64,000 nt of DNA from an uncultured Bdellovibrionales bacterium (GTDB lineage Bacteria > Patescibacteriota > Minisyncoccia > Moranbacterales > UBA1568). A program made the position numbers and the translations under genes. The stretch covers positions 8,389 through 72,388 of the forward strand of contig CAYLJX010000003.1 in NCBI GenBank assembly GCA_964384235.1. Direction: 5' to 3'. Of this stretch, positions 7,094 to 29,599 are shown in pieces (the stretch's first letter is position 1; each line of letters begins with the position of its first letter). The notes beneath the pieces were generated by a model. That model did no database searches. It was not told the DNA's origin and saw nothing but the letters and a program-made list of their open reading frames with translations.

Positions 7094-7099
7094 ACCGAA

Positions 7100-8847: not shown

Positions 8848-8922
8848 AGATGTAAGGATACTTTGATTTTAACATTCTCTTCCCTTTCGGGACACTCCAA
8901 GAACCGGCAACAATATAAAGAG

Positions 8923-9915: not shown

Positions 9916-9944
9916 TTGTCAATTCCTGAAAGACGTGCTAGACT
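9916..9944 (+). promoter_or_regulatory. candidate sigma-70 promoter for rpmE (TTGTCA-17-TAGACT)
   Basis: Hexamers at 9916-9921 and 9939-9944, about 30 nt upstream of the rpmE start. This is a weak motif match. Confidence 0.3.
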
Positions 9945-9973
9945 CTATTTCACTGAAGTAACACCGACTCATT

Positions 9974-10276: not shown

Positions 10277-10344
10277 CGACTTTTCTCAAGCGCTTTCTTT
10301 TCCGTACCTGTGCCCCATTACATTCGAAACTTTTGAGAAAGCGC

Positions 10345-10374
10345 AATCCCGTCCATTTGGTCGGGATTTTGTTT
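10345..10374 (+). terminator. intrinsic terminator after rpmE (AATCCCG-loop-CGGGATT + TTGTTT)
   Basis: A stem-loop followed by a T-run, 70 nt past the rpmE stop. Confidence 0.55.
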
Positions 10375-10420
10375 AGAAAAAATTTTAAATTTTGAACTTT
10401 GACTTTTGACTTGTTGTCAT

Positions 10421-11515
10421 ATGAACGATCTCATCACCGAAATCGAACGCGAGCACCAGGCCGTGACCGCGGCTCTGAGCGATCCGGAAATCGTGAAAGA
10501 ACCCAAGAAGCTCGCGGACTTCGGCCGCCGCAAGACCGAACTCGACGCCATCATCGAACGCGCCGAGAAGCTTCGTGCTGTCGAAAAGAGCATGCGCGAC
10601 AACGCCGCTCTCACTCATGATCCGGACATGGACGCGGAGCTCAAAAGCATGGCCATCGAGGAGAACATCGCGCTCGCCGAACAGAAGACCGCGCTCGAGG
10701 AAGAACTGAAGCGCCTCCTCCTCCCGAAAGACCGGAACGATGACAAGGATATCATAGTCGAGATCCGTGGCGGCGCCGGCGGGGACGAATCCACCCTCTT
10801 CGCGGCCGAACTGTATCGCATGTACGTCCATTACGCGGAAACTCTCGGTTGGCGCATCACCATGCTCCACTCCAACCAGACCGAAGTCGGCGGGTTCAAG
10901 GAAGCCGTCTTTGAGATCAACCGCGGCGGAAGCGACATACCGGTCTATTCCAAGATGAAGTACGAATCCGGCGTACACCGTGTCCAGCGCGTCCCTGAAA
11001 CCGAGAAGATGGGCCGCGTCCACACTTCGACCGTGACCGTCGCCGTCCTCCCTCAGGCCGAAGAAGTGGAAATCTCCATCAATCCGGCTGACCTGCGCAT
11101 CGATACCTTCTGTTCCTCCGGTCCCGGCGGCCAATCGGTCAACACTACCTACAGCGCCGTCCGTATCACCCACATCCCGAGCGGTCTCGTCGTCTCCTGT
11201 CAGGACGAGAAGTCCCAGATCAAGAACCGTGACAAGGCCATGAAGGTCCTGCGCTCGCGCCTCCTCCAGATGGAAGAGGAACGCCAGGCCAAGGAGCAGG
11301 GCGACGCCCGTCGCAGCCAGATCGGCACCGGCGACCGAAGCGAGAAGATCCGCACCTACAATTTCCCCCAGGACCGCATCACCGACCACCGTATCAAAGA
11401 ATCCTGGAGCAATCTCCACGGCATCCTCGCCGGCAACCTCGAACCCATCCTCTCCGCCCTCGAAGCCGAGGATATCCGCCGCAAACTGGAAAGACAGTCA
11501 ACAGAAAACAGTTAA
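10421..11515 (+). CDS. prfA: peptide chain release factor 1
   Basis: GGQ motif ([23 protein letters not shown]) and a PET tripeptide (RF1-type PxT). The ORF track starts at 10406, but [10 protein letters not shown] at 10421 is the more likely start. Confidence 0.9.
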
Positions 11516-11637
11516 CAACAAACAAAGAAACACGAATATGTTGCACACTATAACATACGACCGGATATTATAGTGTGCATGCCCGGGAACTTCGTATCCG
11601 TACTGTTTTCTGTTTTTTGTTGACTGTTATCTGATTT

Positions 11638-12522
11638 ATGACCGTTCAAGCGCTCCAAAAAAAATTCCTCCCCTCCCTCGCGCCGGAGGATTTTTTCGTT
11701 CTGCTTGCGGAAGCGACCAGCAAGGACAAGGCATTCCTCCTGGCCCATCCGGAATACGAGCTTAGGGCAGAGACAGAAGCGAAAGCCCAGGAATACTTCG
11801 CGAGACGCCTCCGCCATGAACCAGTCGCCTACATCGTCGGCCACAAGGAGTTCTACGGCCGGGATTTCAGGGTGACCCCCGCGACGCTCATCCCCAGACC
11901 GGAAACCGAACTGCTTGTCGAGCTTACGCTCAACGAGATTTCCAATTTCCAATTTCCAATTTCCAAAAAAATAATCCTTATCGATGTAGGAACGGGGAGC
12001 GGGAATATCATCATCACCCTTGCAAAGGAAATATCATATCTCATATCTCATATCTCATCATTCAGTTTCCATGCAACGGACATTTCCCTCGATGCGCTCA
12101 CCGTCGCGAAAGAAAATTCCAAACGACATCACGTCGATCATCTCATCTCTTTCCATCAGGGCGATCTCCTTACACCGATCATCGATGAACTGAGAGAGGC
12201 AGAACACATCATCATCACCGCCAATCTCCCTTATCTCTCCGAAACGATCTACGATGACGCCGAAGACGACGTGAAGGATTTCGAACCACGAAGCGCACTC
12301 ATAAGCGACGAGGAGGGACTCGCGCACTCATATCGTCTCCTGGAACAGCTCCACGCACTCACAGCACGCAAGTCTCTCGACGTGTTTTTTGAAATCAGTC
12401 CGGAACAATCTTCTCTTCTGCAAGATCGCATCCGGACGCTCTTTCCTGAGTCAAAAACAACTATTCATCCTGACCTTTCCGGCCGGGACAGAATTGTCTC
12501 TTTTTCCCTTTTTCGAGCCTAA
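11638..12522 (+). CDS. prmC: release factor glutamine N5-methyltransferase PrmC/HemK
   Basis: Class I SAM methyltransferase motifs (ILIDVGTGSGNIIITLA and TANLPYLS, the latter an NPPY-like motif). It lies immediately after prfA as in many bacteria. It contains two in-frame heptanucleotide tracts. Confidence 0.8.
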   Translation: MTVQALQKKFLPSLAPEDFFVLLAEATSKDKAFLLAHPEYELRAETEAKAQEYFARRLRHEPVAYIVGHKEFYGRDFRVTPATLIPRPETELLVELTLNEISNFQFPISKKIILIDVGTGSGNIIITLAKEISYLISHISSFSFHATDISLDALTVAKENSKRHHVDHLISFHQGDLLTPIIDELREAEHIIITANLPYLSETIYDDAEDDVKDFEPRSALISDEEGLAHSYRLLEQLHALTARKSLDVFFEISPEQSSLLQDRIRTLFPESKTTIHPDLSGRDRIVSFSLFRA

Positions 12523-12540
12523 AAACAGGATTGAAAAACG

Positions 12541-12572
12541 AAAAGACCCCGACTTTCGTCGGGGCTCTTCGT
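12541..12572. terminator. bidirectional intrinsic terminator (GACCCCGAC-TTTC-GTCGGGGC)
   Basis: A hairpin with A-runs upstream and T-rich sequence downstream on both strands. It sits between the convergent prmC and the small basic-protein gene. Confidence 0.55.
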
Positions 12573-12602
12573 TGGTTAACCAAAAGAACCTGAAAAGGCA
12601 AA

Positions 12603-12722
12603 ACTATTTGCGCTTCTTGGTGGTCTTCTTCGCGGCCTTCTTCTTCGTCACCTTCTTCGCGGCCTTCTTCTTCGTCACCTTCTTCGCAACTTTCTTTTTG
12701 GTTGTCTTTTTCTTGGCTGCCA
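12603..12722 (-). CDS. small lysine-rich basic protein (histone H1/HCT-like), 39 aa
   Basis: Not in the ORF track. The minus-strand ORF MAAKKKTTKKKVAKKVTKKKAAKKVTKKKAAKKTTKKRK is preceded by a strong SD, GGAGGTGA, 6 nt upstream. It contains a perfect 27-nt direct duplication and ends at the bidirectional terminator. Confidence 0.55.
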
Positions 12723-13231
12723 TATTGCTCACCTCCCTCCTTGCCGTTCTTCTCATCCGTCGTTCCCGTTGGAAGCGCTCGGAGGAAGAATCGGATTATT
12801 TTTTCACACAACACGATTTTTATTTTCAGAGTGTGTGATGCGCGGAAAAATTTTTCCGTACATTTTTATTATACTCTCTTTTTCAAAAATGCAAAGGGAA
12901 AAATAATTCCTGTCAACACCTCGTACACTATTACAAACGATGAAGAGAAAAGTTTCATGTAACAACCGAAGAAAAGTAAAATGAGAAATGGAAAATTAAA
13001 AAATTTAAAAGCAAAATTCAAAATGATTTTCAAAAACAAAACCGATCACATCAATCATGCCCTTCATATTTTTAAAATTTTCCATCACCATTTTCCATTT
13101 TCATCTTTCCAATTTCCATTCTCTGTTTCCTCTGCATGATTGGCATACTCACCCGAAAATATTTCTGTGGAACTTCTATCTCTCTACCAAGAAAATCCCC
13201 ATATTACGCTGAAAAACGTGTTTTTTGTCCA

Positions 13232-13260
13232 GTTGACAGGCACTTTTTCAGACCGTAACA
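13232..13260 (+). promoter_or_regulatory. candidate promoter TTGACA-17-TAACAT within a 660-bp AT-rich spacer
   Basis: ttgacaggcactttttcagaccgtaacat lies ~125 nt upstream of the 13385 start. Confidence 0.35.
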
Positions 13261-13384
13261 TGAAGGGAAAGGGGGTCGAAATGCCGGAACATCCCCTCAC
13301 GAAAACGTGTTCCGACCGAAGCTTCAACGCAAGCGGTACTTTGCAAACTTAGAGATGATTAAGCTAGAAAGAGAGGTGAATACC

Positions 13385-13975
13385 ATGGAACAGATGGACC
13401 AGCAGGATCCGATGTTTGAAGACGATTCCGTTTCCGAAGGAAAGACCTGGATTCAGGAGAATCTCCGTATCATTGTCAGTGTATTCATAGTGGCCGCGAT
13501 CGCCTTGGGTATCTATTCGTACTCGCAGCGCTCGCAGACCGTCTCTGACAACGAGAGCCTCCTCGAATCGAGCGGCGTAAGCGAAGAGCAGTCGGAAGGC
13601 GATGTCGCGGAAGGCGACGAGCCGGAAGCAGTGCAGCCGAACAAAGTCGTCGTCACCCCCGAACTCTCCCGCGAGACGGAAAATTCTTTCGTCGAGCAGG
13701 CGGAACGCGGCAACGGGACGACTCACCTGGCACGCCGAGCACTCGCCCACTATCTCGAGAAGAATCCCGACTCATCCCTCACGGCTGAGCACAAGATCTA
13801 CATCGAGGACTATCTCCGCAAGAACGCCGGTTTCCGAGGCGCTGTCACGACCCAGACTTCGATCGAGTTTCAGAAGAGTCTGATTCAGCAAGCTATCGAG
13901 AAATCGAAGACGCTCAATGAACGCCAGTTGAATAACCTGAAAAAGTATTCCGCTCGCGTGAGCGCCTACCGTTAG
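13385..13975 (+). CDS. hypothetical single-pass membrane protein
   Basis: The start at MEQMDQQDP has a good SD (GAGAGGTGA). One TM helix (IIVSVFIVAAIALGIY) is followed by an acidic region. The ORF track begins upstream at 13307 with no SD. Confidence 0.55.
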   Translation: MEQMDQQDPMFEDDSVSEGKTWIQENLRIIVSVFIVAAIALGIYSYSQRSQTVSDNESLLESSGVSEEQSEGDVAEGDEPEAVQPNKVVVTPELSRETENSFVEQAERGNGTTHLARRALAHYLEKNPDSSLTAEHKIYIEDYLRKNAGFRGAVTTQTSIEFQKSLIQQAIEKSKTLNERQLNNLKKYSARVSAYR

Positions 13976-14022
13976 AATCTCGCAACAAGTTCCCCCGTTC
14001 TTTTTCTGCAGATTAAGAAGAT

Positions 14023-17321: not shown

Positions 17322-17927
17322 TTACTTCTTGAGACCAGCGATGAAGCGTTTCAGTTCCGGCACTTTGTTCGTCACCTCCTCATACGGCCCCTCCAAAAAC
17401 TCGATGAAGAACCGGTCCAGCATGTTGAGGCGGTAGTGCAACTCCTCGTTGTTCATGAGTACGAACCGGATCTCTTTGCCGACTTCGGCCTCCAGATGAT
17501 TGATGGCGTGCTTGAGCTTGGTGCGGTTGACGTTGTTCACCACCAGGATCATATCCACCTTGCTCTTCGGATAGTTGAGGAACAGGCCGCTGATGAGGAT
17601 GAGTTTCACCTCGCCGACGATCTTGAGCTTGCGGAACACCTGTGACTGCGCATGGACATTGAGCTTGGAGACCAGGCTCTTGAGCTCCGTATAGAACGGG
17701 AAGTCCTCATTGGCGATATAGATCTTCCGCCCCTTCCGTGACCGCTCCACGATGAACTTCATTTTGGCCAGACGCGCCACTTCCCGAGCCACCTCCGTCC
17801 GGGAAACAAGTGTTTTTTCCGATACCTCGGCGGAACTGAATTCTATGCCGGGGTTCAAGAGGAAGAAGCGGATGAGACGGGAACGAGCCTTCGATCCGAA
17901 CAGCGCATCAAAGAGGGCAAGCGACAT
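17322..17927 (-). CDS. hypothetical protein (possible winged-helix N-terminus)
   Basis: 201 aa. No confident family assignment. Confidence 0.45.
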   Translation of the reverse strand: MSLALFDALFGSKARSRLIRFFLLNPGIEFSSAEVSEKTLVSRTEVAREVARLAKMKFIVERSRKGRKIYIANEDFPFYTELKSLVSKLNVHAQSQVFRKLKIVGEVKLILISGLFLNYPKSKVDMILVVNNVNRTKLKHAINHLEAEVGKEIRFVLMNNEELHYRLNMLDRFFIEFLEGPYEEVTNKVPELKRFIAGLKK

Positions 17928-18097: not shown

Positions 18098-20617
18098 ATG
18101 CACAGAAAAAAAACTCCCGAAAAAAACACTCCCCTTCTGGAACTGGAAAAGGCTGTCAGTGAGGTATTGATCACCAACGGCCGCTCCCTGGAACCCTTCA
18201 TCAAGGTTTTTCATTATCAGGGAGACAACGTCACCCAGAAAAGCCTGGGGGCGCTGGTCGGTGTGTTCGAGGTGGATGAAAAGAGTGAGGACTCGGCTTA
18301 CATCGTGAACTTTCTCGCTTCCGTCGCGAAGAAAGAGTATTTCGGCAATCCACGCCGCGGCGCCATAGAGAGCTTCGAGGCGACCCTTCACAAGGTCAAT
18401 CTCGCCCTCGCCGAGCTCGTCAAGCATGGCAACGTCTCCTGGCTCGGCAAGTTCCACGGCTCCCTCTGTGTCCTCGAAAAGAACCACATCCATTTCTCCG
18501 TCACCGGACAAAGCGCCATTCTCCTCTGGAGAAACGAAGCCTTTACCGACATAAGCGACGGTCTCGCGTCGGAGGAATCCCATGTCCACCCCATCAAGAC
18601 GTTCGTGGAAATCTCCAGCGGACGACTCGACCTCGACGACCGGATCATCGTCGCTTCCCCCGAGCTCCTGGCCCTCTTTTCCTTGGAAGATCTCAGGAAA
18701 AACGCCCTGCGGATGGACAGAGACCGCTTCACGCAGTTCCTCCGGACCGCCCTCGTCAATGAGCTGGACATGGCCGGCATCGTCGTCATCGACTTCGTCG
18801 CCGCACAGCCCGTCGCGGAAGAAAAATCCGCTCCCCGGAAACCGAAGCATGACCAGAACATCTACCGGAACGTCTTCAGCGAAACGACTTTCGTCAAAAA
18901 ACCCGAGGAAATTTCCTCTACGGAACGACCGGTTGAAAGGACGGAACCACCACGGACGGAATATGTCGACACCAAGACCGGACACATCTACGTCCAAGGC
19001 GATACTTTGGAGCAGGAATCATCCCATCCCTTCTGGGAGCGCACACAACTGATCCTCTCCGACCTTGGCGGCGCGATCTCATCATTTCTCGCCGATAAGC
19101 GACGGCTCCTCCGGAAAGGCCGGAAAAAGTCAGTCATTCTCTTCGCCCTCTTCCTGGAACGATCCGGGACGGTATCGAGAAGGGGTCTTAGGGCGCTTCG
19201 CCGGCAGACGAGACACCTGAAAGACCGTCTTGCGGCTTCGCGAGAGAAAGAAGAAGAAAAGAGGAAACAGGAAGAAACTGATCTATCACAGGCATCGCAC
19301 CCGGATACACCGAGAGAAGAGTCTTTCCCCGTTCCAGAACCGGAAAATATTCCGGAGGAACCGCAAAAGAAAGAAGTGAAAACAGAAGAAGAGACCTTCC
19401 TTCTCCCTGAAAACGCACCCGAGGAAGAGAAAAAGGAGCATGTCATGACCACGCTTCCCGACCGTACTCTTCTCAAGACAAAACTCGCCTCCTTCTATGC
19501 CCCAAAAAGAGAACAAGCTGAGGGCCCCCGCAAGACATTCGCGGCTGCCATGGAGCATTCCTTGGAAAAAGCAGGTACTCTTTGGAATGATCTGAAGGAG
19601 AAGTGTTCCCCGAAAAACGTCCGGCTTCCCGATAAGATGGAGTTTTCATTTCCTCCTCAGGCCGTTTCCGCGCTAAAAAATCTGCCGGAACGATACCGAA
19701 GCCTCTCCCCGGAAAAAAAGAAATACTTGCTTGCCGGCTCGACTGTCATCATCCTCGTCGGAGGCACCTTTCTTCTCCTTCTCCCCCTCCTCACCCGTCC
19801 GACAGCCGAGAACGCTCCTGCGCCAGCCACCTCTTCGGAAACGCCCGCCTCTCCTCTCTCTGGTGAAAAAAATCTGCGCACGGTAACGCTCTCCGCCATC
19901 CAAGAGACCAGTGATGAAATCGTCACCCCTCTCATGCTCCACGGCGAACCCTTCCTCGTGACGAAACACGGGATCATTCAGGAGAACGATACTTTCTCTC
20001 TCCCGACAGCCGACCAGGTGGTACTCGCCGCCGCGATGGAAGACCTTCGTCTCATTTTCCTGTTTACCGAGAAGAAAAGCCTCTACGCGTGGAGTCCACT
20101 CACCCGTACCTACGTACAAAACTCCCTCTCTCTCCCGGATGGAGCGACCATCCGAGACATGGGGAGCTATCTCACCTATCTCTATTTCTTCGACAGCACC
20201 GGGAAACAGATCTACCGTTTTCCCCGCGCAACGGGAGGCTTCGGGGAACCGACCCCTTGGCTCAAGGAAAACCTTGAGCTCGGCGAGTCTTCTTCCATGG
20301 CTGTAGGGTCGGATATCTTTCTGTTCTCCCAAGATTCTCTCCGGAGCTATTCACGAGGCCGAACCGCCTCGACCCTGGAGTCACCGGTCAATCCTCTCGG
20401 AGCCATCCTTCTCACGGCACCGGAAGAGAGCTCCTTCCTCTACGCCCTCGACCGGAACAACCGCCGCATCCTCGTCTGGAATCGGGACGGCTCGCTCGTC
20501 GCCCAGTACGCCGCGGAGCAATTCTCCCAGGCCACCGGTCTCAGCGTCTCCGATGACGGCTCACAAATCTTCGTCTCCACTCCTCACACGCTCTACTCTT
20601 TCAAATCGGAGATGTAA
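18098..20617 (+). CDS. large membrane protein with N-terminal PPM/SpoIIE-like phosphatase-like domain and C-terminal extracytoplasmic domain
   Basis: 839 aa. The N-terminal ~240 aa has PP2C/SpoIIE-like blocks (GALVGVFEVDEKSEDSAY..., SAILLWRNEAF, LDLDDRIIVASPELLAL). A central TM helix is YLLAGSTVIILVGGTFLLLLPLL. The C-terminus is hydrophilic, possibly a beta-propeller. Confidence 0.5.
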   Translation: MHRKKTPEKNTPLLELEKAVSEVLITNGRSLEPFIKVFHYQGDNVTQKSLGALVGVFEVDEKSEDSAYIVNFLASVAKKEYFGNPRRGAIESFEATLHKVNLALAELVKHGNVSWLGKFHGSLCVLEKNHIHFSVTGQSAILLWRNEAFTDISDGLASEESHVHPIKTFVEISSGRLDLDDRIIVASPELLALFSLEDLRKNALRMDRDRFTQFLRTALVNELDMAGIVVIDFVAAQPVAEEKSAPRKPKHDQNIYRNVFSETTFVKKPEEISSTERPVERTEPPRTEYVDTKTGHIYVQGDTLEQESSHPFWERTQLILSDLGGAISSFLADKRRLLRKGRKKSVILFALFLERSGTVSRRGLRALRRQTRHLKDRLAASREKEEEKRKQEETDLSQASHPDTPREESFPVPEPENIPEEPQKKEVKTEEETFLLPENAPEEEKKEHVMTTLPDRTLLKTKLASFYAPKREQAEGPRKTFAAAMEHSLEKAGTLWNDLKEKCSPKNVRLPDKMEFSFPPQAVSALKNLPERYRSLSPEKKKYLLAGSTVIILVGGTFLLLLPLLTRPTAENAPAPATSSETPASPLSGEKNLRTVTLSAIQETSDEIVTPLMLHGEPFLVTKHGIIQENDTFSLPTADQVVLAAAMEDLRLIFLFTEKKSLYAWSPLTRTYVQNSLSLPDGATIRDMGSYLTYLYFFDSTGKQIYRFPRATGGFGEPTPWLKENLELGESSSMAVGSDIFLFSQDSLRSYSRGRTASTLESPVNPLGAILLTAPEESSFLYALDRNNRRILVWNRDGSLVAQYAAEQFSQATGLSVSDDGSQIFVSTPHTLYSFKSEM

Positions 20618-20623
20618 GTTTTT

Positions 20624-23101
20624 CTATACGTTCTCCGCGAGGCGGACACGGTCCATGATCTCGCGGTTGACGATGTTGGCGTCCCGGCCGTAGCGCAGAC
20701 GCGAGAGTTCCTTGAGCGCGTTGGCAATCTCCTGATTCCCATGGGTCGGCGCGTAGGTCTTCATGTTGAACGGCTTGGTGAGCTCATTGTTCATGAGGAG
20801 CCGGACGAAACAGTTGTAGTTGTCGACGTTCATGAGATCGCTCGCCGCAAAGACCGGCGCGAACTGTTTCTCCAAAAATTCCGCGTCCTCCGGTCCCACC
20901 CGGAAGGCCGTGAGTGATCCGACGTTGCCGAAGACCGCCTTGGAGATCTCTTCCTTGAGCTGACCGATGAACTGGTGCGCCAGGATGAGGACGAGACGGT
21001 ACTTGCGCGCCTCGGAGAGGATCTGCGCGATGGAGTTGGTCGTCACGTTCTGGAACTCGTCGAGGTAGAGATAGAAGTCCTTGCGCTCGGCTTCCGGCAT
21101 ATCGACGCGGGACAGGGCCGCCATAAGGATCTTGCCGACGATGACCATACCGAGGAGCCGGGCGTTGATCTCGCCGATCTTGCCCTTGGAGAGGTTGATG
21201 AGGACGATCTTGCCGCTGTCCATGATCTCGCGGAAGTTGAGGGAGCTATGCTGCTGCGCGATGATGGGACGCATCATGTCGTTACTGATGAAGGCAGTGA
21301 GCTTGGACGTGATGTAGGGCACCATGTTGGCAAGCGCCGCGTCGCCGCCGGCCTTCTCCGCTTCCTTGAGCCAGAAGTCACGCACGATCGGATTGGTACA
21401 ATGCTCGAGTTTCATCCGGCGGAAATCCTCGTCGGCGAGCACTTTGGAAATCTCCAAGAGCGTCGATCCGCTCTCGGGGTGTTCCATAATGAGGAGCATG
21501 GCGTTTCGCATGTACTGCTCGAACATCGGACCTCCCGTCGCCTTGAGATCGTAGAGCTGATCGAAGATGCCGATCATCTCGTTGATGACGAACGTCTTCT
21601 GCTCGGGATGCGCCGGATCGTATTCGAGGAGGTTGATACCGATGGGTCGTGCCACATCGGCCGGATCGAAGACAATGACGTCCTCGGCCCGTTCCTTGGG
21701 GATAGCGGTCAGGATGTCCTCGATGGCGTCGCCGTGCGGATCGATGAAACAGAAGCCTTTGCCGGACCGCGCGTCTTTCTTGGCCATTTCCTGAAGATAG
21801 TTGGACTTGCCGACACCCGTCTGTCCGATGACATACATGTGGCGACGACGGTCGTTGTCAGTGATGCGGATGTCCGCCTTGGCACCCCGATAGTCATTAA
21901 AGCCGAGAAGGATGCCCTCCTGGGGAATATTGATCGGGGGCGCAGCGGCGCCGGATTTGAGCCACTTGATCTTGGGCGTTTCGGTGGTCGAGATAGGAAA
22001 GTGGAAGATGCTCGCGATCTCCTCGACGTTCATAATCATGGAGTTCTCCTCGTCGAAATTGCGGAAGATGTAATCATAGAGAGCCTCTTTGGCCCGGACA
22101 CGCTTCCTCACGCGGAAGCGGTTCACTTCCGGATTCTCGAACTGACTGAATGCGTTTTCCATATGCGCGAGGATCTCTTCCGCTCGTTCCTGACTCTTGG
22201 CCGAGGCCACCAGGCGGATGTTCACGCGGAAGGCGCTCTTGCTCGCCTTGGTATCGATCGCCTTGACGAGCTCCTGCTCCTCGGGCGTGAGCTGCACGAC
22301 CTTCTTCTCTTCCGACATCGGATTCTTCTTGGAATTCGTAAGGACGCTCACCATGCCCTTGCCGACTTCCTTGCCGACATCGCTCATGAGCGAACCGCCG
22401 CGCGCGTCCTTGAGCCGTTTGCCTTCCTGCATCTTCTGTGCGAGGGAACGGCCAGCTCCGCGCCACTTGGTCCCCGCCTGCGAGAGAAGCACCTGAATGG
22501 AAGCTCCTTCATCGATCGTCTGGAGACGGCTGAGTGCGTTGGAAATCTCATTGAGGGGATCGACACCCATCTGCCGATACGTCCGAAGCGGCAGCGCATG
22601 ACTCTCCGCAAGCTCGAGCGTCGCTACGACCGACACGCTCTCGGGAGAGAAGACGGTATAATCGGAAACCTTTTCGATGACCGCGTGCGGAAAGAAACCA
22701 TGGATCTGCTTCTCCACGCTCTCGCGAAACTTCTTGGGCACGGACAGATAAAAGAAAATCTCTTCGCTCGAAGACGGGTTGGCGATCTCGAACACGATGT
22801 TCGGTACATGAAAAAAAAGCTTCTTGAGGAAGTTTCCTTTCGGCTTGAGCGTCGCGAGGGTGATGAGGAGCTGTTCCATCGCGAGAATCTCCTCCTTCCA
22901 GGCCTCGGCGCTCCGCTCCCCTTCCGGAAGCTTTTTCTTGGTCACCTGGATGACCTCGAGATCCATATTGAGCGACTGGTTGACCTGGTATCGGAAACGG
23001 AAAAAGCTGCGGATCACGAGCAATGCCCCGGAAAAAAGCGTGAAACCCGCGAGTATCCACGCGAGCGGCACGAACACGATATTCAGATCGAATCCCTCCA
23101 T
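20624..23101 (-). CDS. membrane-anchored P-loop ATPase, type IV secretion coupling-protein-like (VirD4/TraG/TraD family)
   Basis: 825 aa. It has two N-terminal TM helices, Walker A VIGQTGVGKSNYL and Walker B FYLYLDEFQN, and a C-terminal region typical of TraG/TrwB-like AAA domains. It is convergent with the 18098 gene. A HerA/FtsK-like relative is an alternative assignment. Confidence 0.5.
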   Translation of the reverse strand: MEGFDLNIVFVPLAWILAGFTLFSGALLVIRSFFRFRYQVNQSLNMDLEVIQVTKKKLPEGERSAEAWKEEILAMEQLLITLATLKPKGNFLKKLFFHVPNIVFEIANPSSSEEIFFYLSVPKKFRESVEKQIHGFFPHAVIEKVSDYTVFSPESVSVVATLELAESHALPLRTYRQMGVDPLNEISNALSRLQTIDEGASIQVLLSQAGTKWRGAGRSLAQKMQEGKRLKDARGGSLMSDVGKEVGKGMVSVLTNSKKNPMSEEKKVVQLTPEEQELVKAIDTKASKSAFRVNIRLVASAKSQERAEEILAHMENAFSQFENPEVNRFRVRKRVRAKEALYDYIFRNFDEENSMIMNVEEIASIFHFPISTTETPKIKWLKSGAAAPPINIPQEGILLGFNDYRGAKADIRITDNDRRRHMYVIGQTGVGKSNYLQEMAKKDARSGKGFCFIDPHGDAIEDILTAIPKERAEDVIVFDPADVARPIGINLLEYDPAHPEQKTFVINEMIGIFDQLYDLKATGGPMFEQYMRNAMLLIMEHPESGSTLLEISKVLADEDFRRMKLEHCTNPIVRDFWLKEAEKAGGDAALANMVPYITSKLTAFISNDMMRPIIAQQHSSLNFREIMDSGKIVLINLSKGKIGEINARLLGMVIVGKILMAALSRVDMPEAERKDFYLYLDEFQNVTTNSIAQILSEARKYRLVLILAHQFIGQLKEEISKAVFGNVGSLTAFRVGPEDAEFLEKQFAPVFAASDLMNVDNYNCFVRLLMNNELTKPFNMKTYAPTHGNQEIANALKELSRLRYGRDANIVNREIMDRVRLAENV

Positions 23102-23104
23102 ATT

Positions 23105-23206
23105 TGTTGAGTGAGTAGTGAGTAGTTTGTAGTGAGTAGAAAAAATTCAAAAAATCCAGTCGGTATCATTGTTATCGGTCTACCGACTACTCACTACGAC
23201 CTACTC
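23105..23206. repeat. heptamer array (AGTGAGT x4), a 45-nt spacer, then the inverted array (ACTACTC/ACTACGA/CCTACTC)
   Basis: gagtgagtagtgagtagtttgtagtgagtag...ctactcactacgacctactcactc sits immediately upstream of the ATPase start codon. Confidence 0.6.
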
Positions 23207-23629
23207 ACTCTTGATCAGTCCCTTCTCCACGAGGCCCTGGTAGAACTTGTCAGCGAGCTCGTCGTGCATCTTGTCGAGAACGTAGTAATCCTTGAGCTTG
23301 CGCGCGACAGAGACCGCGTGCACGACGCCCTTGGTTCCGGCGAGGTCGACGAGCTTCTGTACTTTTGATTCCGCATCGGTCACATCGGCGATACTCTTGG
23401 CATCCTGATGAGTATCCGTATCGGTATCGTCACCCACCTGCTTGGCCGCACCGCCGGCCTTCGAGAGGATCTCATTGAATGTCCCTTCCGCTTGCTCGAC
23501 CGACTGCTCCGCTTGCTCGACCTGTCGCTCAGGCACGTTCGGAACCTCCTGTCCCTCGCCTCCAACCGTTTTCATCTCCTCCGGCTTCGCCTCCTGTTTC
23601 GTCTCCCCGAGAGTCAGTTCTTCAGCCAT
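23201..23629 (-). CDS. hypothetical acidic protein (142 aa)
   Basis: ORF with a Glu/Gln-rich N-terminal half. No family recognised. Confidence 0.45.
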   Translation of the reverse strand: MAEELTLGETKQEAKPEEMKTVGGEGQEVPNVPERQVEQAEQSVEQAEGTFNEILSKAGGAAKQVGDDTDTDTHQDAKSIADVTDAESKVQKLVDLAGTKGVVHAVSVARKLKDYYVLDKMHDELADKFYQGLVEKGLIKSE

Positions 23630-23654
23630 ACTCGTTTTCCTCTATCGTTTATGA

Positions 23655-23960
23655 TTACACCAATCCTTCCTTCATCTCTTCCTTAAACTTCTCGACGACT
23701 TCCTTCACGAAGGCCCCGTAACCGGGAATCTTCTGCTCGAAAAACGCCTCCACTTCTTCCTGACTGGCCGACTTGTCGAGCAACCCTTCGTATTCCTTCA
23801 CGCCGGCGTCTCCGAGCTTGTCCATCGTCTCGAGAAAGATCCGTTTGAGGAGCGCCTCCCCTATCTGGGAAAGCAGCGCTTCCTGCTTTTCCGTCGGGAG
23901 CGTCTCCAGATGAAACGTTTCAACGAGTTCTTTCTTCAGTGCTTCTTGGTCGAGAGTCAT
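23655..23960 (-). CDS. hypothetical small acidic helical protein (101 aa)
   Basis: ORF between heptamer-repeat tracts. No family recognised. Confidence 0.45.
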   Translation of the reverse strand: MTLDQEALKKELVETFHLETLPTEKQEALLSQIGEALLKRIFLETMDKLGDAGVKEYEGLLDKSASQEEVEAFFEQKIPGYGAFVKEVVEKFKEEMKEGLV

Positions 23961-23964
23961 ATTT

Positions 23965-24016
23965 TTTTAGTTAGTAGTGAGTAGTTGGTAGTGAGTAGTT
24001 ATGGTTGGTAGTGAGC
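23965..24016. repeat. heptamer array AGTGAGT/AGTTGGT x about 7 (single orientation)
   Basis: tagttagtagtgagtagttggtagtgagtagttatggttggtagtgagcag. The unit is the same as at 23105. Confidence 0.55.
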
Positions 24017-24025
24017 AGGAGAAAG

Positions 24026-26578
24026 TCAGAAGCGGATTTCTTTGCCGGTGCGAAGTGCGATCGTCATGATACGACGGGTATACTCGTCGACGGTTTCCCC
24101 GGCCTTGGCATAGGAGAGCGGTCCGAGCGCCTTCTCCGCCGCCTTGGTAAACAAGTCAAGCCCCTTCATCTGGGAATAATGCAACGGATTAAGGGAACGG
24201 TCGTAATTGGTGAAGGGATTGCCATTCAGTTTCCCATAGTCACCGAGGACCCGACCGACTTCCGCTCCGCCCAACGCTTTCGCGTTTTCCGTGTACTGAT
24301 ACTCGAGACCGGTCATTCCTTCTATCTCACTCGTCTGAAAGATTCCCATGCGGATATTTCCCAGTCCCCGGTTGAACTGTCCGATCATTTCGGGATTCTC
24401 CGCGAGGTACGCTTTGGGGTTGCTGTTGATGAGGTTCTCTTCCTGGACGCGGACGGCATCCTCCACCGACACATCCCTCACTGCCGGTTCAGAGACCACT
24501 CCGGAGACGGTCCCTTCCGCCGGTACCGCGGCTTCCGTGCCGACCTGCCCGGCTACGGCTTCCGCCACGTTTTTCCCTGGGATATATTCCCCGGAGAGCG
24601 CCTTGTCGATATCCTGCGCGTTGAGAATCTGACCGAATTTGATCGTATCGCCGGCATAGATCTTTCCGATATCGCCATCCGGGAATCCTAAGCCTTTGAG
24701 CTGTTCCGGCGACATGTCATGCAGCTTGTTTTGGATCGCATTTTCCAGGGACTGGATCGCCTTCACGCGGTCAGCACCATGGAGGTCTTCCGGGAGCTTG
24801 GCATCGATGATACCCCAGAGACCCCGCTTGCCATCGGCCGATGTGAGATGATAGTCCTCGAGGGAGAAACTTATCTTTTCAGGTGTCACAGAAGCCGCTC
24901 CCTCCGCTGCGGGAGCTACTGCTGCTACTTCCGTCGCGGCGATTTCAGGCGAAGCCATACCTGCCTCTGCTGAAGGAGTCGCCTCAGCCGACGACCCTAC
25001 GGTACCAATACCCATCTTCTCCGTGATGATCTGCCCGAGCCAGCCGGAACCGACCGCCACGCCAAGTCCCAGTGCAGCGCCTTTACGTACTTTCTTCCAG
25101 GCTTTCTCGTGTGAAAGTCTCTCATCAAGGTCAAAAATATTCCCTTTCAGCATCGCACTTGCTTTGTCGAAATCGATGATTTTCCCGTTTCTTTCTTCAA
25201 CCGCTTTCTGATCGGTCTCGAGAGTAGGTTCCTGTCTCTCCTTTGTGGTGAGTTCCTCCATCGCTTCAGCCACTTCCCTGTCCGCTTTCGATTCTCGACG
25301 CGCTGCAGCCACCTTCTCAAGCCCGGTTTCCGAAGTGACAAAAAGTGCCGATCCGGCCATCATGTTTCTCACCTTGTTGATACCCAAAGCGAGCGCTCCG
25401 CCCGCCACTCCCCCGAAAGCGGCCGTCGTAGCCGCCCCGGTAAGGAGAACCGCGGTGATGGCGATCTTTTCCGCACCGGAAAGCCGGTTGTACCATCTTC
25501 CGAGCGCCCCGAACGAGTCAAGCGCTTTGGTTGGCCAGTTACGATGCTCCGCCTGATACTGCGTCCGCGCGTCCACGAGCTTTATCGTCTCGCCAAGCTT
25601 CACCTCTTTGAGGAGGTTTCCCATTCCCTCTTTGAGCTCCATTCCGGAAAGGTTCCCTTGCTTCAGCTGCTCAAGCTCGAGGTTCTGCAGATCCATGAGC
25701 TTGTTCATGTACTTGGCCTGGTAGTAATTCACCTCGGCATGCCCCTTTTCCTGCCATTCGCGTTCATCCAGTCCTTTCAGTGTTTTTCCAAAAAACTTCT
25801 GCACTCGCGCCCATGCGTTGGTGTTCTCATGGTCCTCCTTCACATACTCCGCCCGCATCGCCTCGACTTCCCCACGAAGCTTGGCGATCCGCTCTTCGAG
25901 AGGAGATTCTTCCGTCTTCATCTCCGGCTTCAGACCAAGTCCCTCTTCGACGACTTCTAACCGGTCAGCCGGCGTCTCGAAAGGCTTTTCCATCTCCGCC
26001 TGGACTTTTTCCGACATGAACTCCTCCGCCTTCAGCTCGGGAATGTCTTCGGTCTTCGTCGCATGCTGATCTGCAGTCGCAGGCACACTTACGTTCTCAG
26101 GACCATCCGTCTCTGGTTTGTTCAATGGTTCCGTTTTTCCCCAGTCTCTGTATACCTCATCCTGATAGTCAGCGTAAGCTTTCGATTCCTCTTCCGTCTG
26201 TACTCGAGGAGTCGGTTCGGCAGCCGAAGCGACATCCGCCACCTGCGGTTCCGAGACGTTAAACGCATCCAGTTCCTGCTGCGCCTTGGCGATATGTCGA
26301 TTCTCACTGCCGAGAAACGGATTGACGGCATTAGCCTTATCAAGATTCTCGCCAACCTTTTTCTTTGACGCCATCCCCCGTGCCGTTCTTTTTCTTGTCC
26401 GCAAAGACTTCTGTTGGTCTTCGTCACCGGCTTCATTATCGGAATACTCTATCGGATTCTCCTTTTCAAGAATCTTCAAGGCAGCCGCTTTCGCAAGCGC
26501 CACCTGCTCCTCGTGGGACTTCTTTTGTCTTTCCGGTCTTACCGGTTGTTGGATATTTTCCATGCCCATAGGGTTCAT
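24026..26578 (-). CDS. very large hypothetical membrane/surface protein (850 aa)
   Basis: Charged Glu/Lys-rich N-terminus, a glycine-rich hydrophobic cluster (ITAVLLTGAATTAAFGGVAGGALALGI ... GAALGLGVAVGSGWLGQII), an Ala/Glu-rich linker and a C-terminal globular part. No family recognised. Confidence 0.55.
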   Translation of the reverse strand: MNPMGMENIQQPVRPERQKKSHEEQVALAKAAALKILEKENPIEYSDNEAGDEDQQKSLRTRKRTARGMASKKKVGENLDKANAVNPFLGSENRHIAKAQQELDAFNVSEPQVADVASAAEPTPRVQTEEESKAYADYQDEVYRDWGKTEPLNKPETDGPENVSVPATADQHATKTEDIPELKAEEFMSEKVQAEMEKPFETPADRLEVVEEGLGLKPEMKTEESPLEERIAKLRGEVEAMRAEYVKEDHENTNAWARVQKFFGKTLKGLDEREWQEKGHAEVNYYQAKYMNKLMDLQNLELEQLKQGNLSGMELKEGMGNLLKEVKLGETIKLVDARTQYQAEHRNWPTKALDSFGALGRWYNRLSGAEKIAITAVLLTGAATTAAFGGVAGGALALGINKVRNMMAGSALFVTSETGLEKVAAARRESKADREVAEAMEELTTKERQEPTLETDQKAVEERNGKIIDFDKASAMLKGNIFDLDERLSHEKAWKKVRKGAALGLGVAVGSGWLGQIITEKMGIGTVGSSAEATPSAEAGMASPEIAATEVAAVAPAAEGAASVTPEKISFSLEDYHLTSADGKRGLWGIIDAKLPEDLHGADRVKAIQSLENAIQNKLHDMSPEQLKGLGFPDGDIGKIYAGDTIKFGQILNAQDIDKALSGEYIPGKNVAEAVAGQVGTEAAVPAEGTVSGVVSEPAVRDVSVEDAVRVQEENLINSNPKAYLAENPEMIGQFNRGLGNIRMGIFQTSEIEGMTGLEYQYTENAKALGGAEVGRVLGDYGKLNGNPFTNYDRSLNPLHYSQMKGLDLFTKAAEKALGPLSYAKAGETVDEYTRRIMTIALRTGKEIRF

Positions 26579-27942
26579 TTTTTCTCAAGACTTTCACTGA
26601 GAAGCGCCTGTATGAGTCCTTCGTGCCGGTCCTGCGGTATCCCTGTCTTCTCCTGTAGAAATTTCATCACTGTCTCCTTGATTCGCGGGACAAGATCACT
26701 CAACCATACCTCGTCACGCGCTTTTTTCGACACGCCCTCACCGTAAAGTCCGTGCTTGAAATCCTTTTGGATTCCCTGTACATATTTTATGAGCGTAGTT
26801 TTTTTCCGATCACCATTTGGTTCCTGGGAAAAATATTCTCCCAATGAATTTTCTTGTGAAGGCGTTTCCTTCTTTTTTTGGAGTTGAAATACGTCCAAAT
26901 CCTCCACAAGTGCTTTCAGTCGCTCTGACACCTTCTTCTTATCAAGAGGACTCCCCATCTTCGCAAGGATTTTGCTCTCTTGCGCCTGGTCGTTCATCTG
27001 CTTCAAGAGATCCAACAAACGATTCCGGTCATCCTCCTGCAGACTGGTCATCTCATGAAGCTTTTCCTGGTTCTTCCCGATGAGTGTTTCCGCTCGACCG
27101 ATCATCTCCTCTATTTCCCGATCCAACTGTTTCTCGGAACCTTCCGATTGCAAAGGAGCGTTTCCTGGTCCTTTCTCATTCGGAACACTCTTCTTCCGGA
27201 AATCATCAAGTTGCACCACATCGGCAGATCGCACCTTCACCTTTGTCTCTTCTCGCTGTGAAGTTGAGACACCGAAGGGTGAGGGTATCGTCTCATTATT
27301 CTTTTTCTTTTCCGGTTCTGCCACCGCTTCCGCAGTCTCCTCTGCGGGTGCTACCGGTACGGACTGAGGGGATTCTACCAGTTCTGTCGCTACAGTCTCC
27401 GTTACTGGAGGTTGTATAGGTTCTGCCACGGCTGCAGGCTCTTCCACCGAGGAAGACGTAGGAATCTCAATTGGCTCTACATCCTGTACTGTTTCTTTTT
27501 GAACAGGATTCTTTTTGGAAATCTCTACGAGAACTCGATCTATATCTTCCTGATTCGGAGATCCTATCGCCCCTGACCGACGGCTTTCCAGGTTGAAACC
27601 TTCGTTTCTCAAAAAATCCTTGAGTTCATCGATTCCTTCGAAAATATGATCGCCCGTCCTGTCCTTGCGAGTACTCTCGGTCCGATAACGAACCCGTATA
27701 TCTCCTTCCCGAAGCGATTCGATACGGATCACATGATGAGGATTCTTCCATTTGTCTTTCTGACCAAGACTCTCCAAGTCTTTCTCCCGTTTGGCGACCG
27801 TCTCGGGAGACTCCGGGGACGCCGAACCACCGGCGGATGTTTCCTCGCCAGCCTTCGCTTCCAATTTATGAAAAAAATCGAACACAGCCGTGTGCGTTTC
27901 CGTTTTCTTTGCTATAATCTTATCATAAGAAACAAAAAACAA
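26575..27942 (-). CDS. hypothetical protein with Pro/Glu/Val-rich linker (455 aa)
   Basis: Overlaps the upstream 850-aa gene by 4 nt (translationally coupled). It has a low-complexity PxxP/E-rich centre. Confidence 0.55.
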   Translation of the reverse strand: MFFVSYDKIIAKKTETHTAVFDFFHKLEAKAGEETSAGGSASPESPETVAKREKDLESLGQKDKWKNPHHVIRIESLREGDIRVRYRTESTRKDRTGDHIFEGIDELKDFLRNEGFNLESRRSGAIGSPNQEDIDRVLVEISKKNPVQKETVQDVEPIEIPTSSSVEEPAAVAEPIQPPVTETVATELVESPQSVPVAPAEETAEAVAEPEKKKNNETIPSPFGVSTSQREETKVKVRSADVVQLDDFRKKSVPNEKGPGNAPLQSEGSEKQLDREIEEMIGRAETLIGKNQEKLHEMTSLQEDDRNRLLDLLKQMNDQAQESKILAKMGSPLDKKKVSERLKALVEDLDVFQLQKKKETPSQENSLGEYFSQEPNGDRKKTTLIKYVQGIQKDFKHGLYGEGVSKKARDEVWLSDLVPRIKETVMKFLQEKTGIPQDRHEGLIQALLSESLEKK

Positions 27943-27982
27943 ACAAATCGTCGCGGGTCAAAATCAGCCCGCGAGCACGAGT

Positions 27983-29599
27983 ATGTTCGAACAAAAAAAG
28001 TATTCCTTGCTTTCCGGACTGCTTCTCGTCGCCATCCTGCTCCTCGCCCTCTTTCTCCGGAGCTACCACATCGAAAGCATCCCTGCCGGACTCTATCCCG
28101 ACGAGGCGACCAATGCCACCGACGCCCTCCATGCCATCGAGACCGGCGACTACCGGCTCTTCTACCCCAACAACTACGGTCGTGAAGGACTCTTCATCAA
28201 TCTCCAGGCCTTTGCGCTCCAGCTTTTCGGATACAGCGTCGCGGCGCTGAAGTTCTGGTCGGTGATTTTCGGCACCCTCACCGTCCTCGGCGTGTATCTT
28301 CTCGGCAAAGAACTCTTCCGCCGCCGGGCCGCCGGTCTCGCTGCCGCCTTCATGACAGCCACCGCCTTCTGGACCATCAACTTTTCACGCATCGGCTTCC
28401 GGGCCATCATGATGCCGTTCCTTATTTCGTTCACGTTCTTCTTTTTCTTCCGCGGACTGCGGACCAGGCGGTACCTCGACTTCGTCTGGAGCGGACTCTT
28501 CCTCGGTCTCGGACTCCATACCTATGTCGCGTTCCGGCTCACGCCGCTCATCTTCGTCGTTCTTCTGCCGGCCCTGTTTCTCTCGTATGAGAAGTTCCTC
28601 AAGCGCTATTGGAAACACGCTCTCGCCTTTTCTTTCGCTGCTTTCGTCGCGGCCGCACCGATGTTCTACCATTTCTTCGTCACCAACCCGGAGGACTTCG
28701 CTTCCCGTTCCGCCGCCGTTTCCATCTTTTCCCCCGAAATCAATCACGGCGACTTCTTCGGGACGCTCGGCAAGACCTTCAGTCTCTCGCTCATCAAGTA
28801 CAACTTTCTCGGTGACCAGAACTGGCGTCACAACTATCCGCCCTATCCGATCCTCGACCCGCTGGTCGGCACGTTCTTCCTCGCCGGTTTCCTCTTCGTC
28901 ATCTGGCAGATCGTCCATCAGGTTATCATCCGTTTCCGCGATCGCAACCGCGAGATCGACCTAGTACGGAACACGTTCCTTCTCGGTTCGTTCTTCGTGA
29001 TGCTCATGCCGGAATTCCTCACCGAGGAAGGATTGCCCCATGCCCTGCGCGCCATCGGCACCCAGGTACCCGTCTTTCTCATCGCCTCATTGCCAATCCT
29101 CTGGATTCTCCGACAGATCCATCGCTCACAGGCCGGATCCCGCCTGATACTCACTTCCCTCCTGGTCCTCTTCCTCGCGGGGAGCGCTCTCATCAATATC
29201 ACCAAGTACTTCGTGTTCTTCGCACAGAGTCCCGAACAGCACGGCGCCTTCGATGAGCGCTACACCAACATGTCCCGCTACCTCCTCTCCCTGCCCGCCG
29301 AGACCCGCAAGTATGTCCTGACCAACGCCGGCGGCACCCATATCGACAACGGCCTCCCCGTCACCGCCCAGCCGATCGCCTTCCTCACCTATGGGAAGAT
29401 CGAGAATCTCGACTACCTGCAGCCGGATACCCGCATCGACCGCAGCTATGAGAATATCATCGTCTTCCAACGAGACGACGACCGGGTCGTCGAGAACCTC
29501 AAAAAGCGCGTTCCCGATGTGAAGATCGAAAAGATCGATCCGCGTCCGGAATTCGGCGGAGGTTTCACCGTCGCCATCCTCCCGGCCTTGCAGAAATGA
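27983..29599 (+). CDS. GT-C family glycosyltransferase (ArnT/PMT-like, polyprenyl-phosphate-sugar dependent)
   Basis: 538 aa polytopic membrane protein. Its N-terminus LYPDEATNATDALHAIETGDY... with DE in the first periplasmic loop is typical of the GT39/GT83 (PMT_2) family. Confidence 0.7.
   Translation: MFEQKKYSLLSGLLLVAILLLALFLRSYHIESIPAGLYPDEATNATDALHAIETGDYRLFYPNNYGREGLFINLQAFALQLFGYSVAALKFWSVIFGTLTVLGVYLLGKELFRRRAAGLAAAFMTATAFWTINFSRIGFRAIMMPFLISFTFFFFFRGLRTRRYLDFVWSGLFLGLGLHTYVAFRLTPLIFVVLLPALFLSYEKFLKRYWKHALAFSFAAFVAAAPMFYHFFVTNPEDFASRSAAVSIFSPEINHGDFFGTLGKTFSLSLIKYNFLGDQNWRHNYPPYPILDPLVGTFFLAGFLFVIWQIVHQVIIRFRDRNREIDLVRNTFLLGSFFVMLMPEFLTEEGLPHALRAIGTQVPVFLIASLPILWILRQIHRSQAGSRLILTSLLVLFLAGSALINITKYFVFFAQSPEQHGAFDERYTNMSRYLLSLPAETRKYVLTNAGGTHIDNGLPVTAQPIAFLTYGKIENLDYLQPDTRIDRSYENIIVFQRDDDRVVENLKKRVPDVKIEKIDPRPEFGGGFTVAILPALQK

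Follow-up and report, generated by a model that had tools for sequence, protein, structure and literature searches.

A predicted coupling-protein homologue and its small acidic companion in a Candidatus Moranbacteria genome

Type IV coupling proteins (T4CPs) of the TrwB (R388)/VirD4 family, DotL and Cagbeta included, have a RecA-like domain with Walker motifs and an inserted all-alpha domain. They carry two N-terminal membrane helices, and are encoded together with a relaxase and the genes of a type IV secretion system (T4SS). Cagbeta and DotL work with small adaptor or regulator proteins (PDB entry titles 8dol and 6sz9). Here we describe a homologue of the coupling proteins, an ATPase of 825 amino acids (aa), and the 142-aa acidic protein encoded directly upstream of it, in a 64-kb stretch of DNA (the window, to which all coordinates refer unless another replicon is named) from a genome of Candidatus Moranbacteria, within the Patescibacteria or candidate phyla radiation (CPR). 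The ATPase has the RecA-like domain, the Walker motifs and the all-alpha insertion in common with TrwB and VirD4, but it has one N-terminal helix and an extra N-domain of ~320 aa (DUF8128) that they lack, and it is without a linked T4SS.

Much of bacterial diversity belongs to the Patescibacteria, which are host-dependent, and macromolecule transport across their envelope is largely unknown. In the sole genetically tractable species a chromosomal T4SS is essential and was described as lacking a recognisable coupling protein, and orphan VirD4-type homologues are nearly universal in the phylum. A recent catalogue of 3,035 Patescibacteria genomes reported 5,713 VirD4-type homologues, distributed over 2,918 of the genomes, with only 148 of the homologues near virB4 (Quinonero-Coronel et al. 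2025, PMC12102498). The initial annotation of the window, which proposed a possible uncharacterised secretion, DNA-transfer or cell-cell interaction apparatus around the ATPase, can therefore no longer be followed in treating this kind of ATPase as uncharacterised. Like the ATPase here, the catalogued orphans belong to Patescibacteria and are rarely near virB4, and the present family may be among the 5,713 hits. The accessible portions of that report describe no DUF8128 N-domain, partner protein, fusion, or alternation between helix and fusion. In the literature we also found no earlier account of the partner, of its fusion to the ATPase or of a link through DUF8128, and nothing on DUF5663, DUF8128 or DUF87 together with CPR. 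What is new here, modestly, is the partner protein, its fusion to the ATPase, and the link through DUF8128 to coupling proteins of monoderm plasmids and Bacillus phages.

The 825-aa ATPase and its relatives

The ATPase gene lies at 20624..23101 on the minus strand. We observed a single hydrophobic N-terminal helix by hydropathy (aa ~9-34; 23000..23077, minus strand), which was modelled as one helix of aa 6-44, so that the two membrane helices claimed initially have to be reduced to one. This helix is followed by the DUF8128 alpha/beta N-domain (PF26449 in precomputed annotation; aa ~46-365; 22007..22966, minus strand), and then by a T4CP-like soluble domain (aa ~395-820; 20642..21919, minus strand), recognised from Foldseek, profile and model, in which a RecA-like fold carries a helical insertion at aa ~501-628. 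The Walker A motif GQTGVGKS (aa 426-433; 21803..21826, minus strand) and the Walker B motif LDEFQN (aa 680-685; 21047..21064, minus strand) were present as had been reported. In family alignments of 29 and 40 diverse homologues, G426, G429, G431 and K432 of Walker A were invariant, as were D681 and E682 of Walker B, and Q684 and N685 were nearly so. The guanine-plus-cytosine (GC) content over the gene (0.54-0.58) was in line with that of the window.

The family models of Pfam and NCBIfam for T4CPs matched the ATPase weakly and far under the NCBIfam cut-offs; the Pfam matches were TrwB_AAD_bind (3.7e-7), DUF87 (3.6e-6) and TraG-D_C. When a profile of 29 diverse family members was compared with PDB sequences, TrwB was matched at 2.3e-8 and DotL at 2.2e-5, followed by HerA at 1e-3. 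A first AlphaFold2 model, made with 33 close homologues, was poor (predicted local distance difference test, pLDDT, of 62). It was replaced by a second, made with 40 sequences from a profile search (41-83% identity), which reached a pLDDT of 81. In this model, the all-helical segment of aa 501-628 stands between Walker A and Walker B, which is the arrangement of the all-alpha domain in TrwB.

In structural comparisons with Foldseek, TrwB was aligned over ~412-442 columns, taking in ~411-427 of its residues and so nearly the whole soluble protein, with a template-modelling (TM) score of 0.66-0.68 (normalised to the target) and a root-mean-square deviation (rmsd) of ~4.5 Å. Cagbeta followed with a target TM score of 0.56 over ~500-530 columns (rmsd ~6 Å), and HerA gave 0.55 over ~525-535 columns with an rmsd of 13-14 Å. 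Judged by sequence and model, then, the 825-aa ATPase is a homologue of the VirD4/TrwB/TraG-type coupling proteins, as the initial annotation had proposed from its motifs. Public annotations of the family agree in kind, naming its members 'type IV secretion system DNA-binding domain-containing' or 'TraM recognition domain-containing' proteins.

We also evaluated other P-loop families. VirB4 (TrwK) resembles the ATPase in length and in its layout of an N-domain and a C-terminal ATPase, and was aligned over its full length (~910-950 columns), at a TM score of ~0.3 and an rmsd of ~16 Å. A VirB4 identity was rejected: there was no CagE_TrbE_VirB or AAA_10 match in Pfam, VirB4 was absent from the profile matches, and no VirB3 or VirB6 gene was found as a neighbour. 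In addition, plasmids and Bacillus phage G carry a separate VirB4-like gene alongside their DUF8128 homologue.

HerA and FtsK/SpoIIIE belong to the ASCE P-loop superfamily, as does the ATPase, which did not classify robustly with either. HerA was rejected, there being no HAS-barrel, a target TM score of 0.55 that is lower than the 0.67 of TrwB, and weak matches at the P-loop level (DUF87 3.6e-6, PADLOC HerA ~1e-3). No gene for NurA, Sir2, DUF4297 or another nuclease or effector partner was found near the ATPase with Pfam and PADLOC. For FtsK/SpoIIIE, neither Pfam nor NCBIfam gave an FtsK_SpoIIIE match, there was no gamma domain, the ATPase has one membrane helix, and the family was not among the top structural matches. 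A defence system was also rejected, the PADLOC matches to mad8 and HerA being weak and at the P-loop level.

When we examined plasmids by tblastn, 258 records were found to carry a homologue, among them 100 of Streptomyces and 56 of Bacillus, as well as plasmids of haloarchaea and Sulfolobus. The best match was at 9e-63, and the homology extended from about aa 90 to 818 at ~22-28% identity. Used in turn as phmmer queries, plasmid coupling proteins matched all 83 of the 83 CPR ATPase open reading frames, with E-values down to 1.6e-79. The setting of these plasmid genes is one of conjugation. On a 27.5-kb plasmid of B. subtilis, the homologue (885 aa) is found with ParM, a replication-relaxation protein, conjugal transfer proteins and an 847-aa ATP-binding protein. 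On a plasmid of Embleya, the homologue (812 aa) accompanies PrgI, a 643-aa ATP-binding protein, a replication-relaxation protein and NlpC/P60. We read both the 847-aa and the 643-aa ATP-binding proteins as VirB4-like. In Natrinema pellirubrum pNATPE02 (8737-12925), DUF8128 is a separate protein of 395 aa, whose gene is immediately upstream of the ATPase gene and overlaps it; since it is separately encoded there, the DUF8128 N-domain is an independent module.

Phages were the second source of relatives. A tblastn search found 64 phage records with a homologue, nearly all of them Bacillus phages, and in 45 of the 64 the match covered at least 80% of the protein, DUF8128 included; examples are phage G gp156, SP-10, JL, CP-51, the Tsamsa-like phages and 0105phi7-2. 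DUF8128 was conserved in both the phage and the plasmid homologues from aa ~90-117 onwards. Among the PHROGs families, phrog_5156 matched the ATPase over its full length (4e-92). The predicted structures agreed, with an E-value of 3e-46 for phage G gp156 and TM scores of 0.68/0.62 over 863 columns for JL gp150. In Bacillus phage G (1770-7334), gp153 is TrbL/VirB6-like, gp155 is VirB4-like and gp156 is the homologue. In the Tsamsa-like phage Thrax4, genes for ParM and an M23 peptidase precede that of the homologue, which shares an overlap with the 'replication-relaxation' gene downstream of it.

Most of the plasmid and phage DUF8128 homologues, even those in genuine conjugation clusters, were without the classical two-helix membrane domain. 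Because this holds for the conjugation-cluster homologues as well, that domain does not define the DUF8128 subclass. The plasmid and phage coupling proteins share with the CPR ATPase the full-length architecture of a DUF8128 N-domain followed by a T4CP ATPase, and the family is therefore placed in a DUF8128 subclass of coupling proteins that is typical of monoderm and archaeal conjugation. Its descent from the coupling proteins of such systems is established by these comparisons. The differences concern the surroundings: the plasmid and phage genes adjoin genes for replication-relaxation (relaxase-like), VirB4-like, VirB6/TrbL, PrgI or ParM proteins, whereas the CPR gene is chromosomal, lacks all of these, and has a dedicated small partner. 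A check of five phage loci turned up no homologue of the partner, nor any of the DUF5663, 850-aa and 839-aa proteins described below.

The phage genomes also yielded some observations of their own. Large Bacillus phages and phage-plasmids were seen to carry a T4SS-like gene set, several genes of which are annotated as hypothetical or mis-annotated as MsbA. In other Bacillus phages (JL, Thrax4 and 0105phi7-2), the homologue lies beside ParM/StbA, a replication-relaxation protein, a tyrosine recombinase, or RepA/ParA partition genes.

A chromosomal orphan gene and the 142-aa protein

An exhaustive search for the ATPase family gave 5,767 cluster representatives (clustered at 50% identity) at E<=1e-30, and for the majority of the 150 listed the match took in the greater part of the sequence. 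Taking one genome per species, a scan found at least 597 loci, and those with credible names were spread over many Patescibacteria lineages. We further called and clustered the genes of 81 related loci, taking 10 kb around the ATPase. Outside Moranbacteria, the commonest upstream neighbours were the ribosomal proteins L5, S8, L6, L18, S5 and L15 of the spc operon, followed by SecY and Adk. Other recurrent neighbours in the CPR loci were Ndk, DnaX, an RNase J-like protein, IF3-L35-L20, RmuC, CysRS and CorA.

The T4SS partners whose presence would be looked for beside a coupling protein were not seen. Neither the 64-kb window nor the 10 kb around the ATPase at the 81 loci yielded a VirB4, VirB6, pilin-like or relaxase gene, and PrgI was not found there either. 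When conjugation proteins from the plasmids were used as queries against the window and the 81 loci, they matched nothing besides the ATPase itself. Within Moranbacteria, the ATPase was 58-81% identical to the window copy, a conservation comparable to that of the release factor (71-77%), while RmuC showed 33-68%. These results established that the ATPase gene in Patescibacteria is vertically inherited, strongly conserved, chromosomal and unlinked from T4SS genes.

The 142-aa acidic protein (isoelectric point, pI, 4.64) is encoded at 23201..23629 on the minus strand, directly upstream of the ATPase gene. Its family has a conserved core in a C-terminal helical segment of ~55 aa, and no relative was found in Pfam or the PDB. 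With iterated profile searches, the family was found at 52 of the 81 loci (51 of the 73 with enough upstream sequence). At 30 loci the homologue was directly upstream of the ATPase on the same strand, and at 22 it was fused in frame to the N-terminus of the ATPase, the resulting proteins being 900-970 aa long apart from one of 1,164 aa. No other neighbour accompanied the ATPase across lineages in the 81 loci. Adjacency and fusion together are good evidence of a physical association between the two proteins.

The fusions also bear on the N-terminus of the ATPase. Among 130 family representatives with a complete N-terminus, 93 had the membrane helix and no fused domain. A fused partner domain was found in 17, of which 16 were without the helix, and the remaining 20 had neither. 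The fused domain occupies the position that the membrane helix has in the unfused ATPases. By likeness to the CagZ-Cagbeta pair and to the adaptors of DotL, the 142-aa protein may be an adaptor or regulator of the ATPase.

The conserved functional unit is the two-gene module of the 142-aa protein and the ATPase, and not a machine of six genes. The orphan of the Patescibacteria is in this way defined as a DUF8128 and TrwB-like ATPase, with an ancestry among plasmid and phage coupling proteins and a small partner supported by fusion, and the two genes can be named as targets for study.

Possible roles of the module

We consider it somewhat probable, at a little over an even chance, that the module works as a ring motor of the TrwB kind, associated with the membrane and provided with an adaptor, and that it serves a distal T4SS that has no relaxase. 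The ATPase would assemble into this ring at the cytoplasmic side of the membrane, anchored by its single N-terminal helix, and ATP would drive the engaging and pushing of the substrate. By ancestry, this substrate would most likely be DNA or a nucleoprotein, and could also be a protein. The small partner would sit at the N-terminal side of the ATPase as adaptor or regulator, and in some lineages would be fused to it where the membrane helix otherwise lies. The client would most likely be the relaxase-less chromosomal T4SS that is encoded elsewhere in most Patescibacteria genomes, a role without any T4SS being almost equally likely. The DUF5663, 850-aa and 455-aa proteins would perhaps be co-transcribed accessories specific to Moranbacteria, and the 839-aa membrane protein belongs to a separate, convergently transcribed gene.

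Several observations weigh against this role. The canonical two-helix membrane domain of VirD4 and TrwB is missing from the ATPase, and the best Foldseek E-value (4e-15) was that of VirB4 over its full length, at the low TM score already given. About 13% of the family representatives are entirely without a membrane helix, and this fits poorly with docking at a channel. That the 142-aa protein binds the ATPase is suggested by adjacency and fusion, and at 16 non-Moranbacteria loci another small protein of ~165 aa is encoded directly upstream of the ATPase. The latter is acidic at its N-terminus and ends in a conserved C-terminal motif, W-L-x-x-IPGVNKFFLEQEAKIKTD; no relationship to the 142-aa family could be detected (hhalign probability 0.15). 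From other genomes, the essential T4SS of Southlakia epibionticum was described as having no recognisable coupling or relaxase proteins (Wang et al. 2023). The T4CP homologue of this species, known as VirD4-type and not specifically as DUF8128, is non-essential although the T4SS is essential, and T4CP homologues were found in 96% of Patescibacteria genomes as against 80% for VirB4 (PMC12102498).

The wider spread of T4CP homologues than of VirB4 leads to the second reading, as exaptation of the orphan homologues is itself raised as a possibility in the 2025 catalogue (PMC12102498). Here, the former coupling protein would have become, with its partner, a housekeeping translocase independent of any T4SS, acting in chromosome or DNA handling at division or in nucleic-acid processing or import. 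We regard this as possible, though on the doubtful side. It is consistent with the housekeeping operons that host the ATPase in many lineages (spc-SecY-Adk upstream; Ndk, DnaX and RmuC downstream), with a conservation comparable to that of the release factor, with the existence of helix-less fused variants, and with the homologues in Bacillus phages and plasmids that adjoin the ParM/StbA or RepA/ParA partition genes. However, the N-terminal membrane helix is kept in 93 of the 130 representatives, and no FtsK_SpoIIIE or gamma domain was detected in the ATPase with Pfam or NCBIfam. Every characterised relative acts with a T4SS or a relaxase, and the plasmid homologues lie within conjugation clusters. 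Moreover, gene neighbourhood is a weak guide to function in reduced genomes.

A more far-reaching proposal, to which we give a low probability, is that the 142-aa protein and the DUF8128 ATPase make up a near-essential motor throughout the Patescibacteria. Such a motor would no longer be conjugative, and would move DNA, nucleoprotein or proteins for a core episymbiotic process, e.g. host nucleic-acid acquisition, or chromosome handling in cells without the usual systems for it. The 850-, 455- and 839-aa proteins would then have been recruited in Moranbacteria as envelope accessories.

Neighbouring genes, leaders and the rest of the window

All six open reading frames that the initial annotation had grouped in the cluster were found again with the same coordinates and lengths. 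The public gene call for the identical contig has the same genes, except that the last is 436 aa long, from a downstream start, versus 455 aa here. Five of the genes are co-directional and closely spaced (a 4-nt overlap, and gaps of 65 nt and 25 nt), and may be co-transcribed.

Next to the 142-aa gene is that of a 101-aa acidic protein (23655..23960, minus strand; pI 4.58), so that both small proteins are acidic as first described. It matched Pfam DUF5663 at an E-value of 9e-10 (39.4 bits versus a gathering threshold of 23.7, positions 1-83 of 84), and the domain is also given in precomputed annotation. DUF5663 homologues were found at 11 of the 81 loci with 44-71% identity to the window copy.

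The 850-aa acidic protein (24026..26578, minus strand) has a coiled-coil-like central block and two hydrophobic segments rich in glycine and alanine (aa ~370-401 and 500-519), which correspond to the glycine-rich hydrophobic cluster noted earlier. It is fast-evolving, with homologues at 7 of the 81 loci, in Moranbacteria only, and 23-41% identity. The 455-aa acidic protein (26575..27942, minus strand) is encoded by a gene that overlaps the 850-aa gene by 4 nt, which is in keeping with their proposed coupling. Nothing credible was found for either protein in Pfam, NCBIfam, PADLOC or PHROGs. The 455-aa gene has a very low codon-usage score for its length and a GC content of 0.488 (26001-28000) versus ~0.55-0.58. 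Its protein had homologues at none of the 81 loci; since even close relatives lack it, the gene must be either very fast-evolving or recently acquired.

The 839-aa protein is encoded on the plus strand (18098..20617), 6 nt from the 3' side of the ATPase gene; its gene is convergent and is therefore transcribed separately. It consists of a conserved N-domain, a low-complexity linker, a membrane helix (aa ~541-570) and a C-domain. The family has 333 members, none with a Pfam domain, and all named sources are Moranbacteria; homologues were found at 7 of the 81 loci, again in Moranbacteria only, with 38-47% identity. The C-domain gave weak matches to NHL beta-propellers (2e-4 and 7e-3) and to the PknD sensor domain (0.08). 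The membrane helix of the initial annotation held up, and its PPM/SpoIIE-like N-terminus found weak support: Pfam SpoIIE matched 2 of 8 relatives at an E-value of 0.0049, the window protein itself was unmatched, and the PPM motif positions were partly substituted when the alignment was inspected by eye. A membrane (pseudo)phosphatase-like sensor would be a plausible assignment.

These neighbours had been the ground for a third reading, in which the six proteins, perhaps with the adjacent glycosyltransferases, make up one novel envelope-spanning machine for secretion, DNA transfer or host attachment around the ATPase. We consider this very unlikely. The tight spacing of the five co-directional genes is compatible with a single transcript, the 850-aa protein has its two hydrophobic segments, the 839-aa protein combines a membrane helix with a probable extracellular beta-propeller, and the arrangement is kept in 7-8 Moranbacteria loci. 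However, the large proteins are missing from the other 70 or more loci carrying the ATPase, so the neighbourhood analysis upheld conservation for the ATPase and the 142-aa protein and not, beyond Moranbacteria, for the 839-, 850- and 455-aa proteins; across the phylum the ATPase is accompanied by the 142-aa protein alone. Within Moranbacteria, the large neighbours (23-47% identity) evolve much faster than the ATPase (58-81%), and the 455-aa protein is without a homologue even in close relatives. A hairpin and T-runs stand between the 142-aa gene and the ATPase gene, and the 839-aa gene forms a separate transcript. The PMT_2 glycosyltransferase genes do adjoin the cluster, as had been pointed out, but synteny in Moranbacteria is unbroken through the PMT_2 genes, the cluster, RmuC, the GT4 transferase, PrmC and the release factor. 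Because synteny covers the entire region, with housekeeping genes that have nothing to do with the cluster, gene order here singles out no machine; conserved order in reduced genomes should, as a caution, not be taken as evidence of one.

Finally, that the ATPase is a leftover of a decayed integrated conjugative element or phage-plasmid, to which its nearest architectural relatives on plasmids and in Bacillus phages and the low GC (0.488) and poor codon score of the 455-aa region might point, is largely refuted and barely credible: the gene is present across the sampled Patescibacteria lineages at conserved chromosomal positions and under strong purifying selection, genes for an integrase, a relaxase or Rep were not found around it, either in the window or at the 81 loci, and the gene has the GC content of the window with Walker motifs that are intact and invariant.

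The heptamer arrays reported for the region are real and local to it, but they do not flank the ATPase: both are on its 5' side, one in the leader of the ATPase gene and one in that of the DUF5663 gene. Array 1 (23110-23139), detected with a tandem repeat finder, lies, together with a long hairpin from RNA folding, in the spacer that parts the ATPase gene from the 142-aa gene (23102..23200, minus strand), and array 2 (23968..24015, minus strand) is in the 5' leader of the DUF5663 gene. The heptamer ACTCACT (coding strand) had 8 matches versus 0.68 expected. In the hairpin (23102-23225, minus strand; -39.2 kcal/mol, z -3.98), the heptamers of the ATPase leader are base-paired to an inverted copy of themselves, located where the 142-aa gene has its 3' end. 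It encloses a smaller stem, followed by T-runs, and separates the two genes; it may be a terminator, an attenuator or a processing site. The hairpin is not conserved in relatives, whose leaders are A-rich, G-poor and without heptamers. For this reason a role of the heptamers as conserved regulatory repeats was rejected, and the arrays appear to be lineage-specific, G-free leader sequence.

The window otherwise encodes housekeeping functions: isoprenoid synthases, EF-Ts, ribosomal protein S2, the release factor and PrmC; a GT4 transferase, RmuC and the PMT_2 glycosyltransferases; an FtsQ-like protein, the DNA polymerase III delta' subunit, MreB, MurA and a Mur ligase; and glycolytic enzymes, RuvX, Adk, SecY and a tRNA cluster. 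Small open reading frames at 54.3-63.8 kb look, as a run, like a ribosomal protein operon. The genes for Adk (52152-52820) and SecY (52975-54246), followed by the small co-directional frames up to 63759 (minus strand), are ~30 kb from the ATPase gene. Since many other CPR lineages place the ATPase and its partner immediately downstream of SecY-Adk, the position of the ATPase has moved in Moranbacteria. Two further stretches of the window have a lower GC content, 6001-8000 (0.479) and 12001-14000 (0.467). One of them encodes a 311-aa TPR protein, and the other includes a gap without annotation (12522-13307) as well as a 222-aa protein that has no Pfam match and is 55-69% identical across Moranbacteria.

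The nearest homologues with a source name were from Candidatus Moranbacteria. Many TPA_asm bins with a Patescibacteria-type locus are labelled 'uncultured Bdellovibrionales', 'Gammaproteobacteria' or 'Candidatus Saccharibacteria'; these labels look unreliable, since the gene content of the bins is Moranbacteria- or Paceibacteria-like. Beside the cluster, a 201-aa protein (17322..17927, minus strand) is given for context and is not argued to be a member of the module. It is conserved as much as the ATPase (49-84% identity in the syntenic Moranbacteria loci), and its whole length is matched by PDC-M05A, a candidate defence family of PADLOC (E 2.6e-22); there is also a weak match to MarR_2 (a MarR-type winged helix).

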